DNA of 64,000 bases from Chrysomallon squamiferum (Eukaryota > Animalia > Mollusca), in the NCBI GenBank assembly GCA_012295275.1, contig CM022669.1:2294001-2358000 (forward strand), given 5' to 3'. The notes below the pieces were generated by a model. That model was not told the DNA's origin. It saw only the letters and a list, made by a program, of their open reading frames with translations, and ran no database searches. Shown piece after piece: positions 8,952-19,146 of this stretch (positions within the stretch are counted from its first letter, which is position 1; the number at the start of each line of letters is the position of its first letter). Position numbers and translations under genes: made by a program.

Positions 8952-9314
8952 TCATCTTTTAATGTTCAGTTCTGACAAATCACCACAGCTCATAACCTTC
9001 CTGATGGCATATTCTGACTCATATGTATCACCAATTGTTTGCAATGTTTTTCCACAAGTATTGCAGAGATACTTGTCTCCCATCAGTCGCAAGAGTTGAC
9101 CACAAACTCTGTGAATGTGAGCACTGTGGGGTCTTTCTGCTAGTCTTATATGTGGAGTGCTTAAACTCAGCCTGGCTGACGGTTCTGGTGTTATGATCTT
9201 ATGGGCTGTTGACATGGATACTTCAGTTGCTGGTATGGTTTCAGTGGTAACAGATTGTTCGGCTGTACTGTCTTTTTTTACCTCATCTGATTTTGGATCT
9301 GTTTTGCACCCCAT
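8952..9314 (-). CDS. Putative BH3-only protein (120 aa) with two tandem NOXA-like BH3 motifs
   Basis: Uninterrupted ORF from ATG 9314 (MGCKTDPK) to TGA, richer in GC than its flanks. Disordered S/T/E/P N-half, then VCGQLLRLMGDKYL and TCGKTLQTIGDTYE. A donor GTGAGT at 9838 suggests a non-coding first exon. Confidence 0.68.
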   Translation of the reverse strand: MGCKTDPKSDEVKKDSTAEQSVTTETIPATEVSMSTAHKIITPEPSARLSLSTPHIRLAERPHSAHIHRVCGQLLRLMGDKYLCNTCGKTLQTIGDTYESEYAIRKVMSCGDLSELNIKR

Positions 9315-9839
9315 TATTATGAACCTTTTCAAAGTTTATAAATAATAATAATAATATTAATATACTATTAAAATATAATTATTACAACATGAAAATTATA
9401 TTAGAAGTAATAATTTATTAATTATTTATTACTATCAGTTCAAGTAGTAATTTAATAATTCAGTACTGATGTGTGGTAATATAGTTCCGCTTTCGTTTAG
9501 GATAACATATATATTAAAAAGTAAAAAATAAAAATAAAAATACTCATCTTTAAGAACTTGAAAGTTTTATAAATGTCAATTTTAATTAAATAATCTTGTA
9601 AACACTAAAACAGTAAACTGTAAAGCCCCCGTGTACGAGTATTACATATTATACATAATATAAACTGAATAATAAATCACCAATATGAATATCGGAATAA
9701 CTAACAGAATATGTATTACTAATAGTAATATTACTATTAGTATTACTATTTATACATAATATTGGAAAATTTAATGCTCATACAAATTAACTAATTAAAT
9801 CAGTAATCTCAAACAAAAATGGATAAACGTTTACTCACA

Positions 9840-10422
9840 ATTAATTTAATTATTAAAAATATTTTGTTCAGTTCTAAACTACTGGCTACTCTCATAAATG
9901 GGGAATCCTCTACGAGTATAATGTATCTATCATAATCTAAATATGGAACATACTAACCGACATCGGTAGCAATCTACGCTCGAGTAATTATGAATTTCAG
10001 GATATGATGGAGTACTAGTCGATATCGTTTGTCAATTAATATCTTGAGGGTTACACAACTAGATTTATATAAAGTTTCTAACGTAATACGTTAGGTAATT
10101 AGTCTATCTTTTTATTAACTTATAAAATTCCGCCTGTGAATTTTTTTTTTTTTTTTTCTGCTATGGAATTAATTCCGATGTAACTGGTTGACAACAATTA
10201 ATGTTTATTAAGATGTAGTATCGATCGAAATTTAGAGACTACAATATTAAAAAAAATAATTTTATGACGTTTAACATGTATAAAGAATTGGCCAATCCTG
10301 TTTCACATTTTGATCATGTGGTATGACGTGTACCGGGAACAAATAATGCTATCTTGTTGTCCTATTCGGCCATTTTGAATAAGTTTTGTGGGAGAGTTTG
10401 GGGGGTAATATATACTTTAAAT
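9840..10422. promoter_or_regulatory. Probable bidirectional promoter between the BH3-motif gene and the MCL1-like gene
   Basis: CpG-containing interval between divergent ORFs. kB-like GGGGAATCCT at 9900, CCAAT at about 10291, CRE half-sites TGACGT at about 10265 and 10324. Motif matches only. Confidence 0.5.
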
Positions 10423-16908: not shown

Positions 16909-16962
<54 letters not shown>

Positions 16963-18004
16963 TTGTAAGCTGTTTGCAATAATTTCATCTTGTAAGCTAA
17001 TAGAAGTATGTAAAATGAAAAATATTTATATTTTATTTATGATAGAAATCCATTTGTTTTAATGACACATCATATATAAATATTTTAGATTCTGACAAGC
17101 TTTTGGTTTTTATACATATATTGGGGAGTTTGGTACATACACTCATTCAGAAACTAAATCATTCTGCTGCTAATTATAGATATCGCTGTAGTCTGTTATA
17201 TGTTATAGATCTCTCTTTTATTGTGAACAGTGTTCAGACAGGCCTGAAAAGCCTGCGAAAGGTGAATGTGTTTTTTGTTTAATTAATGTTGTTGGCTTTG
17301 TGCATTCTTTTAAAAACTGTACATAATATTTAACAACGGTGTGGTTCCTGTACTGATCGTCTTTTTACCGTTTCGGTATGAGTAAGCTAAATGGATTTCC
17401 AGCCTAACACGGAAGTTTTTTTTTTCTTTTTCTTTCGTTTCCCCGGATTTAATTTTAAATGTACGAATAAAACAGAAAATTTGTTTCACTGGCGGTATTT
17501 TATGGAGCTATAAATATATAATAAACAATAACAAATTCAGAAACTAAATGTTTTCAAAGAACGGAAACTGGGAAATCAGTCTCAAAATTCATTGGTAAAG
17601 GAAAATATAAATAGACGATGTAAATAATTCTTATATCTATATATAAAGGGTTCATCAGTATAACATATATTCATTTTTATTTGAACAAATATTACATCAA
17701 GTGATTTACGACACGCAGGAATATAAGCGGCGTTTGTAATTCCAGTTGTTAACCTAATTTCTATGCTCTTACAGTAAAACATCAGTCGAGCGAAACACGT
17801 AAACAAATTACGTTCGGTTAAAGCCAGCATAAAAAAAAAATCAGTATGTTTTAATGTGAGCAGATTCAACGTTGTTACTCTTTTATTTACCTCTAACAGT
17901 ACAGATAATCAGTGACAGTCACGTCTATTGACCCTTACCACACGACTAACTTGCCAAACAAGAAATAGATACAGCCTGAAACTCCAGTATTGAATGAGAC
18001 CAAC

Positions 18005-19146
18005 ATGTCTGACAGGCAACGGATAAATTACGACTGGACGGTTCTTATTGCTGAAGATACCATAACCAGTTATGCTGATAGAACAAGTACCACAACGTCG
18101 ACTTTGAGATTTGCCAGATCGAGTAAATACTGCAGAGTGATGAGACAAAATGTCAAAAAATTGCTGGAAAGGCACAAAATTGTTTTTAATTCAATGGTAA
18201 GGAACCTGGACATCTGTGAAAAAAATGTGTGTGTGACTTTTGTCCAAGTAGCGGACGTTGTTTTTGAGGATGGGGTGACAAACTGGGGAAGGATTCTAAC
18301 AATATACGCATTTGCTACTCGTCTGGCAATGGCGTGTAATAGTAGTGAAAGTAAACTACTTGACACTATTGCCACTGACACAGGGAAATACATCTGGCAA
18401 AAACATGGAACATGGATTTTACAACACGGTGGATGGGTAAGCGATCAATTTAATTATTATTTTTATTGTTTACAACCTTGTGCTCAACCTTCATCTTTTA
18501 TTTTTTATCTTTTTTAAATATATATACAGGGTGTCCGTAAAGTTACTTGTAATAAAGAAATATGGTTAGATTAAAACAAATTTCAGAAAATATTTTAACA
18601 ATATAAGCAATCAATTTTATTTACTACAGTTTGGAATGAATATACCTATTTTATAGACTTGTTTTTAGTATGCGTATTTAATAGAGTTGTTTTCAGCTGA
18701 AATGTTTAGTAACTTTATGGACACCCTATAGGCCTATATATTACAATTACAGTTTAAATAATCTCAGGCCATCTGTTCAGTTCAGGTGAGCTAAAACCAA
18801 AACATTTCATTATTTCTAAAGCAAATAATGATAACTGAAGTACATATATCACACATTTTAGTATGAAGGTAATATTTCAGAAGTGATTAACCATTAAAAA
18901 GGAGTTCAAATATTTTTTACTTTACATGACATCTTTCTTGTACTCCATTCAAGTTAATAATATTATTTGTGTATGCGAGTAATTATATATATAAAAATGA
19001 TAATAATGAAAATAATATTTTATTTCCAGGATGCTTTTGTTGAAGCCTTTGATGACACAGATACAGTCGAAAAAGGTATCTGGAGAGGACTTCTTTTTAC
19101 TGCCATTGGTCTTGGAGCTATGGCAACTGTTTTGGCAGTCAGATGA
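18005..19146 (+). CDS. Second MCL1-like Bcl-2 family paralog, about 182 aa; exons 18005-18436 and 19030-19146
   Basis: BH1 VFEDGVTNWGRIL, BH2 WILQHGGW|DAF with the same intron position, and an exon 2 of the same coding length (117 nt). TM GLLFTAIGLGAMATVLAVR. The start Met is uncertain. Confidence 0.92.
18527..18728. mobile_element. Tc1/mariner-type MITE of about 200 bp in the paralog intron
   Basis: TIRs CAGGGTGTCCGTAAAGTTACT ... AGTAACTTTATGGACACCCTA, flanked by TA. Confidence 0.85.

Follow-up and report, generated by a model that had tools for sequence, protein, structure and literature searches.

A candidate BH3-only gene with two motifs beside a predicted pro-survival Bcl-2 gene in Chrysomallon squamiferum and other molluscs

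A stretch of 64,000 nucleotides from the mollusc Chrysomallon squamiferum (assembly GCA_012295275.1, contig CM022669.1, positions 2,294,001 to 2,358,000; hereafter the window) carries on its minus strand a small gene whose 120-residue product holds two back-to-back motifs of the BH3 type. This double-BH3 gene stands head-to-head with a Bcl-2-family gene on the plus strand (gene 1), which is followed by a shortened second copy (gene 2). On balance we favour the reading that the double-BH3 gene encodes a BH3-only trigger of apoptosis beside its conserved predicted pro-survival target, the two probably served by one bidirectional promoter. The linkage of the two genes is conserved across gastropods and bivalves. 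It is very likely that the double-BH3 gene acts as a BH3-only protein, and its product probably binds that of gene 1; binding, killing and co-regulation, as well as bivalency, are what we infer from the features described below.

The double-BH3 gene and its Bcl-2 neighbours

A sequence-only reading that preceded this work had placed three open reading frames (ORFs) here, and their positions were borne out: the ATG of the double-BH3 gene (9314, minus strand) and that of gene 1 (10423, plus strand) diverge across 1108 bp, and both plus-strand genes match the Pfam Bcl-2 family. The double-BH3 gene is made up of the following parts (UTR, untranslated region):

8952..9314, minus strand: coding exon of the 120-aa double-BH3 protein (RNA contigs, homologs)
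9315..9324, minus strand: 5′ UTR portion of exon 2, 3′ of the splice acceptor
9325..9838, minus strand: 5′ UTR intron of the main isoform, 514 bp, GTGAGT...AG
9839..9947, minus strand: exon 1a, non-coding first exon of the main isoform, 5′ end minimal (RNA contigs)
9958..10146, minus strand: exon 1b, alternative first exon with a GTTAGT donor at 9957 (RNA contig)

RNA contigs that end at 9324 resume at 9839 (runs X2 and X4) or at 9958 (X4), and at both joints the minus strand shows GT-AG introns, of 514 and 633 bp. The gene accordingly has two alternative first exons and an intron within its 5′ UTR. Exon 1a is drawn from loose contig ends of 84 and 109 letters in X2 and X4, and exon 1b from a single X4 contig of depth 4, the extent of which presumes that 188 loose letters ending in T17 are collinear, so that the real start may lie nearer gene 1. 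Each 5′ UTR has an out-of-frame ATG, and the frame it opens extends across the main start; exon 1a also contains a kB-like site. The region was present in five runs from two studies, four of these being RNA from one study. Four runs were compared with the ORF: X2 and X4 cover it, X1 reaches the 3′ UTR/end only and X5 leaves it uncovered, which for X5 and X1 does not indicate absence; RNA contigs give neither true start sites nor expression levels. The minus-strand ORF at 9314..8952 is almost certainly a real gene. That it should be a chance reading frame within an upstream antisense transcript, as the missing Pfam match over cut-off might suggest, is scarcely credible in view of the canonical splicing 10 nt before its ATG and of homologs, from nine named species and two classes, whose motifs never vary.

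Other features were noted around this gene. An AT-rich inverted repeat or palindrome lies inside the 5′ UTR intron (9708-9750), a 109-bp direct duplication (82% identical) lies 3′ of the stop codon (8270-8487), and ATTTA occurs 11 times in 952 nt of 3′ UTR, which in such AT-rich DNA was not used as evidence.

The two Bcl-2 genes, the splicing of which is predicted from the genomic sequence, consist of two exons each:

10423..10995, plus strand: gene 1 exon 1, Bcl-2 domain with intact NWGR (Pfam, homologs)
12865..12981, plus strand: gene 1 exon 2, C-terminal membrane anchor and stop (tails of full-length homologs)
18005..18436, plus strand: gene 2 exon 1, shortened paralog with intact NWGR (start codon inferred)
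19030..19146, plus strand: gene 2 exon 2, membrane anchor and stop

Their products of 229 aa (gene 1) and 182 aa (gene 2) match Pfam Bcl-2 with E-values of 1.6e-28 and 1.7e-24, respectively. In both, a GT-AG intron follows the GGW codon and the second exon encodes a hydrophobic tail, and an intron after GGW combined with a tail-anchor exon is described as the layout of pro-survival Bcl-2 genes (PMC8998228). The BH3 of gene 1 itself lacks the Gly-Asp pair, and so it does throughout the gene 1 family. Gene 1 is probably of the pro-survival type and of the MCL1/A1/BCL-B(NR13) group, resembling proteins named 'NR13-like', 'MCL1-like' and 'A1-like' at NCBI. It is 77-79% identical to a Gigantopelta aegis protein and 66% to one of Haliotis; in trees computed without vertebrate sequences it falls among gastropod and bivalve members, with the Gigantopelta protein as its sister (starred support). 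By these relationships the window is gastropod DNA. In profile searches it scored 88 bits against an entry named 'Bcl-2-like 4' (which we take to be from Hydra), 82.5 against MCL1, about 80 against BCL-xL and 79 against BCL2L10. Of the earlier proposal of a BH3-only killer facing an MCL1-like inhibitor, a BH3-like gene facing a probable pro-survival Bcl-2 gene stands; the profiles do not separate MCL1 from its relatives. A molluscan MCL1 clade was reported in an analysis of multi-motif members (PMC11463336); gene 1 and its relatives may correspond to it. The pair as a whole is likened to a BH3-only/pro-survival pair, and strict orthology with MCL1 would go further than these sequence comparisons do.

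A molluscan family with two motifs

A HMMER scan of 1.84 billion representatives yielded 25 matches, 22 of which were kept after P0112 (2059 aa, 7 repeats) as well as two repeat proteins that lack the motifs (P0117 and P0119) were dropped. A profile search, which scored the best 7996 candidates only, added 22 new sequences among its 32 matches, so that with the window protein and the one at locus L008 the family comprises 46 sequences. A single-sequence word search found one homolog only, and a metagenome scan with a bivalve BH3 alignment found no locus. The named members belong to nine species (Lottia, Patella caerulea, Littorina, Nucella, Lymnaea, Elysia crispata, Mactra, Mizuhopecten, and Solemya) and thus to two classes, gastropods and bivalves; NCBI names them all hypothetical or unnamed, and no named cephalopod or non-mollusc member appeared among the best 7996 candidates scored. 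Solemya velum has two near-identical copies (P0135, P0158) about 100 locus tags apart on one chromosome, reflecting either duplication or an assembly artefact.

A BH3 motif was defined by four hydrophobic positions, small residues, a conserved Leu and Gly-Asp (PMC9171138, PMC10107002), the four hydrophobic positions plus Asp being the description given in PMC9171138. The motifs of the window protein are the following:

9069..9104, minus strand: BH3-like motif A, C71-Y82, its L, R, G and D invariant in 46/46
9021..9056, minus strand: BH3-like motif B, C87-Y98, 16 residues past motif A
9123..9134, minus strand: RxxS, R61-S64, N-terminal of motif A, here without a +2 proline
8976..9005, minus strand: hydrophobic-x-R/K-x-x-S-x-x-x-L, I104-L113, AMPK/MARK-type, C-terminal

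In the window protein both motifs fill all four hydrophobic positions and have the Asp, and a CxxC (C84-C87) links them. Across the family motif A reads C/S-G-x-I/L-L-R-x-M/I/V-G-D and motif B C/Y-G-R/K-x-L-R-x-M/I/L-G-D-E/Q-I/L/M, with the G-D core present in both motifs of all 46 sequences. The distance from A to B is 16 residues in 44 members, 15 in one and 20 in one. Cysteine occupies the first hydrophobic position of motif A in 27/46 and of motif B in 34/46, while the Lys directly after the Asp of motif A, seen in the window protein, is found in only 2/46. RxxSxP occurs just before motif A in 22/46 members (1.7 expected by shuffling) and the AMPK/MARK-type serine motif after motif B in 14/46 (0.8 expected), both patterns having been defined after the alignment was viewed; some C-terminal motif of the AMPK/MARK kind is present in 26/46. 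That these flanking serines are kinase and 14-3-3 sites is our assumption from consensus patterns.

The structure model shows coil for residues 1-60 (predicted local distance difference test, pLDDT, 49-59) and helices at 64-81 and 85-109 (pLDDT about 95) with a brief break at the CxxC linker. The N-terminal half is probably disordered according to this model, and the N-terminal portion varies freely and is unalignable across the 46 members. On a continuous helix the 16-residue spacing corresponds to 160 degrees and 24 Å. The protein has no transmembrane segment (peak 19-residue hydropathy 0.35); searches for a Bcl-2 fold or another BH domain gave no Pfam Bcl-2 match and no fold match, and the fold search with the model returned nothing at E 0.001 or better.

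A CxxC between the motifs in 23/46 members would also suit a protein that regulates the gene 1 product, or serves it as an adaptor, without killing, acting on its turnover, on autophagy or as a metal/redox switch through BH3-like helices and CxxC. One database label in fact reads 'Yippee domain', the double-BH3 transcript is found in bulk RNA, and HUWE1, which turns over MCL1 through a BH3 (PMC9171138), has its BH3 peptide among the weak PDB matches of the family profile. We consider such a role unlikely, as only half of the family retains the CxxC, whereas no member departs from either G-D core, and as small size and a disordered remainder suit classic BH3-only proteins (PMC8998228).

Linkage, the shared interval and the second Bcl-2 gene

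Both genes were retrieved in four of the nine named species, and in 4/4 of these they have consecutive locus tags on contigs of equal size (Lottia 234736/234737; Patella caerulea 012162/012163; Nucella 057145/057146; Mactra 013486/013485); these are three gastropods and one bivalve, and locus tags give no orientation. Two further homolog pairs lie each on contigs of matching size (4660; 1798677). Orientation was visible at L008, a bivalve locus by its tree position, where a BH3 ORF (5351..5025, minus strand, E 2e-18) and a Bcl-2 ATG (6317, plus strand) are 965 bp apart. Retention of the head-to-head layout in relatives was a check set beforehand by the sequence-only reading, and together the L008 contig and the locus tags answer it positively. 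Sixteen Bcl-2 loci were examined, most with less than 1 kb upstream, and L008 was the one (1/16) with a BH3-family ORF beside the Bcl-2 gene. At L003 an acidic ORF on the opposite strand lies 809 bp upstream of the Bcl-2 gene and runs off the contig; it is suggestive only, as it has no significant similarity to the double-BH3 family (best E 0.5). Loci L009 and L011, which hold distant Bcl-2 genes, have about 2.9 kb upstream without a BH3-family match.

On its other side the double-BH3 gene is tail-to-tail with INTS14 (exons at 2442-7497, plus strand), which diverges across less than 1 kb from a Kelch-repeat gene (1026-1580, minus strand). This makes a second head-to-head pair, and such layouts are not rare in the window. 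INTS14, Kelch and leucine-rich repeat (LRR) exons were found in none of L008, L003 and L009 (5 kb beside the gene in L008). Since INTS14 is missing beside the L008 pair, the double-BH3/Bcl-2 pair seems, in this one example, better conserved than its surroundings. We take human INTS14, BCL2A1, BCL2L10, and BMF all to lie on chromosome 15q, a possible trace of old macrosynteny.

The interval between the two start codons had been described beforehand as CpG-containing with kB-like, CCAAT and CRE-like motifs. Its observed/expected CpG ratio of 1.32, compared with a median of 0.30 for the window's 63 one-kb bins (five bins reach at least 1.0), agrees with this, and all three kinds of motif are present. 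Promoter candidates, for which the factor names are presumed, are as follows:

9900-9910, strand unassigned: kB-like site, 513-523 bp upstream of the gene 1 ATG, within RNA-covered exon 1a
10265..10376, plus strand: candidate elements of the gene 1 proximal promoter, namely TGACGT (10265, 10324), CCAAT (about 10290, present on both strands) and YY1-like GCCATTTT (10369)

Against 300 shuffles the kB-like matches (five overlapping matches at two sites, reached in 0/300) and TGACGT (p 0.027) were enriched in the window, but CCAAT was not (p 0.16). A kB-like site also lies 444-454 bp upstream of the Bcl-2 ATG in L008 and 416-425 bp in L003; TGACGT at 140-159 bp and GCCATNTT at 54-112 bp upstream are shared by the window, L008 and L003. 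Taken singly, p < 0.05 was reached only by the kB-like cluster of the window, the exact kB match of L008 and TGACGT in two loci. The three intergenic regions contain no exact p53 half-site (RRRCWWGYYY; degenerate sites were outside the search), and no exact heat-shock element was found in the intergenic regions. RNA-covered exons reach 9947 and about 10146, i.e., to less than 480 bp from the gene 1 ATG; as exons 1a and 1b extend toward this ATG, the divergent start sites would be less than 1 kb apart. In both bivalve loci, L008 and L003, predicted donors and acceptors on the minus strand point to a comparable 5′ UTR intron. We consider it reasonably likely that one short bidirectional promoter drives both genes. 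A further CpG-rich stretch at 19500-22000, directly past gene 2, is likely the promoter of the next gene.

Gene 2 is 45% identical to gene 1 over 132 aa and has a shorter N-terminus. Its branch of 3.0-4.6 changes per column is at least ten times longer than that of gene 1 (0.3), and its placement in the trees is not stable. Joining it in one clade with gene 1 and the Gigantopelta protein scored 0.84 log units above the free tree and was not rejected (approximately unbiased test, p-AU 0.61), which is no proof of such a clade. By its sequence, gene 2 is a tandem paralog that evolves fast, perhaps a product of local duplication. Heterobranch gastropods have fast-evolving second Bcl-2 copies of their own (P0087, P0088, P0085, P0090), with which repeated duplication of the guardian is possibly a theme. 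An origin of the double-BH3 gene by inverted duplication of the Bcl-2 gene found no support (hhalign probability 0.2%, no profile similarity to the neighbour).

Two intact Bcl-2 paralogs in the window, together with the first-position Cys and the Lys after Asp in motif A, both NOXA-like (PMC9171138), would suit the idea, put forward in the sequence-only reading, of a NOXA equivalent with one motif for each tandem paralog in a toxin-antidote-like cassette. This is very unlikely: the Lys is shared by just 2/46 members, all of the family has the double motif whereas gene 2, perhaps a local duplicate, sits on a long branch of uncertain placement, and the 1.1 kb before gene 2 contains none of the kB-like, TGACGT and GCCATNTT motifs of the interval, which for its part has no p53 half-site. 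The double motif probably did not arise to serve the two paralogs of the window, because both classes already have it throughout. Toxin-antidote is no more than an analogy, given that there is no sign of a selfish or addiction module and that the neighbours (INTS14, Kelch gene) are ordinary; the ancient, stable and vertically consistent distribution of the pair argues against a selfish element.

Elsewhere in the window, both strands of a degenerate tandem repeat at 56550-57704 contain long open frames (Thr/Ile-rich on the plus strand). An acidic low-complexity exon of 575 codons without a Pfam match lies at 36483-38210 (minus strand) and an LRR exon at 27983-28342. Three regions with similar translations ('ESIKAITPAK', 'ESIKAVTPAK'; 5880-6610, 35034-35453, and 50757-51440) probably stem from a degenerate DNA transposon family.

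The proposed switch and its likeness to known systems

Several points weigh against a BH3-only trigger placed beside its target. The family was gathered via the motif region, so that conservation there is partly by construction, even though something can still be learnt from the constant spacing and from two cores that never vary. In 17/46 members motif A has Q or H at its fourth hydrophobic position, several bivalve members lack the flanking serine motifs, and BH3 consensus patterns have little predictive value according to a review (PMC9171138). No Pfam BH3-only family scored above its cut-off: PMAIP1 (PF15150) matched 3/45 members (E 0.034-0.27; best 14.4 bits, cut-off 27) and not the window protein, and Bcl-2_BAD (PF10514) matched 2/45 (best E 0.048; best 14.5 bits, cut-off 28.2). 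Although the top three PDB matches of the family profile were BH3 peptides (BAK, E 0.11; BAX, 0.29; BCL2L2; range 0.11-0.42), none was stronger than E 0.11, and PDB searches with two single relatives gave no BH3 peptide. The named clusters listed in a language-model search with the member P0131 (BMF, PXT1, PUMA, BIM, BIK, and last PMAIP1) are every one of a BH3-type family, but their scores of 0.83-0.76 fall under the range in which the tool is reliable and are a lead only, and the same search with the window protein gave no usable match. Orientation is visible in one relative only (L008), the closest homolog pair sits on contigs of different sizes (230623 and 279382 vs. 226176), the promoter motifs were picked after the sequences were viewed and are mostly non-significant individually, and the RNA support stems from one study. 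In addition, about 10% of eukaryotic genes are head-to-head (PMC4089025).

By these sequence comparisons the double-BH3 protein has no significant likeness to any one BH3-only protein, and they do not place it in the NOXA or the BAD family. The likeness to NOXA drawn in the sequence-only reading is disfavoured, as the PMAIP1 and Bcl-2_BAD matches are equally weak and five other families rank above PMAIP1. At rank 2 of the P0131 search, with a score equal to that of the BMF cluster, stood a mostly arthropod cluster (247 aa, 119 members, no Pfam), a possible lead to an arthropod BH3-only protein.

Some of the same evidence would fit a true BH3-only protein with its main target elsewhere, either a BCL-xL-like protein or BAK/BAX by direct activation, the linkage then being a compact promoter that is hard to break. 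Motif B best matches the BH3 peptides of BAK and BAX, head-to-head pairs are common (PMC4089025), and the flanking motifs are BAD-like, vertebrate BAD being a protein that does not bind MCL1 (PMC9171138). We judge this rather improbable, since a partner from the apoptosis pathway is improbable as a random neighbour, the linkage spans gastropods and bivalves while INTS14 was not found within 5 kb in L008, and the first-position Cys, frequent in both motifs, is shared with the MCL1-selective motif of NOXA (PMC9171138).

Under the favoured reading of a trigger beside its own target, each motif would form a helix seated in a Bcl-2 groove, and the double-BH3 protein would neutralise the gene 1 product and so free BAK/BAX, a downstream pathway demonstrated in oyster (PMC5550854). 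The linked genes would couple the output of trigger and buffer, and basal transcription would be safe because production of the one is tied to that of the other. Death would then be set by inputs specific to the trigger, namely the kB-like site in exon 1a, the upstream ORFs and serine phosphorylation, the phosphorylated serines flanking the motifs leading to 14-3-3 sequestration in the manner of BAD. A step of 16 residues turns a helix by 160 degrees, so that the two binding faces would look away from each other, and the fixed spacing could allow one molecule to engage two Bcl-2-fold proteins; we advance bivalent binding only tentatively. The fullest version, a phylum-wide bivalent BH3-only protein locked by its promoter to its own MCL1-type inhibitor since the gastropod-bivalve split, with NF-kB input and BAD-like phospho-gating, is doubtful as a whole. 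If true, it would be a self-buffered life-death switch in about 1 kb, engaging two guardians, or a guardian and BAK/BAX, together, and possibly mirroring how BH3-only genes first became wired to their targets.

In three papers from 2013 to 2022, BH3-only proteins are given as not identified in bivalves or molluscs (PMC3634015, PMC5550854, PMC8917759), and one of the three infers a simpler apoptotic network from this absence; another source calls them 'potentially present in Lophotrochozoa', its consulted part naming no molluscan example (PMC8998228), and 10.1101/2021.12.21.473695 states that they were excluded from analysis. By title and the start of the abstract, we found no paper on a double-BH3 family, back-to-back double BH3 motifs or a target-linked BH3-only gene, supplementary tables and most subscription papers being outside this scope; the family is probably undescribed. 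It offers a concrete candidate for the BH3-only trigger thought to be missing from molluscs, one that is already public as a 'hypothetical protein' beside a Bcl-2 gene, and it suggests seeking BH3-only genes beside MCL1/NR13-like genes in other invertebrate phyla. There is a possible bearing on stress and infection responses of farmed shellfish.

Like EGL-1/CED-13, the schistosome and Hydra BH3-only proteins and Drosophila Sayonara, the double-BH3 protein is lineage-restricted and recognised by a short motif alone. Sayonara differs in being a coiled-coil protein with one motif, and none of these invertebrate proteins is described as linked to its target in the source excerpts at hand; a sequence link to them was not found, with no direct comparison made. 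BMF, BIM, PUMA, BIK, and PXT1 are the nearest named language-model clusters (0.77-0.83, below 0.9 and without an alignment), and to our knowledge they have single motifs only. By analogy, the flanking serine motifs look nearer to BAD than to NOXA. BAD is retained by 14-3-3 once Ser112/Ser136 are phosphorylated (PMC3750306), and where the double-BH3 family has an RxxSxP-type serine (22/46 members), it precedes the leucine of the BH3 motif by about 11-19 residues; like BAD, the protein has no transmembrane segment, and 2/45 members give weak Bcl-2_BAD matches. The family differs from BAD in its two G-D motifs and the lack of significant homology, the window protein also lacking the +2 proline, and vertebrate BAD does not bind the MCL1 (PMC9171138) to whose group the target proposed here probably belongs.

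With NOXA (PMAIP1) and its partners MCL1/BFL1, the pair has in common a small BH3-only-type protein, the first-position Cys and a proposed target of the MCL1/A1/BCL-B group. Mouse Noxa has two BH3 motifs as well. In molluscs, the two motifs stand back-to-back (16 aa) throughout the family and are encoded in one coding exon after a 5′ UTR intron, the PMAIP1 profile stays far under its cut-off even at its best E of 0.034, and no p53 half-site was found. The genes of NOXA and MCL1 are unlinked, whereas here the double-BH3 gene lies head-to-head with its Bcl-2 gene.

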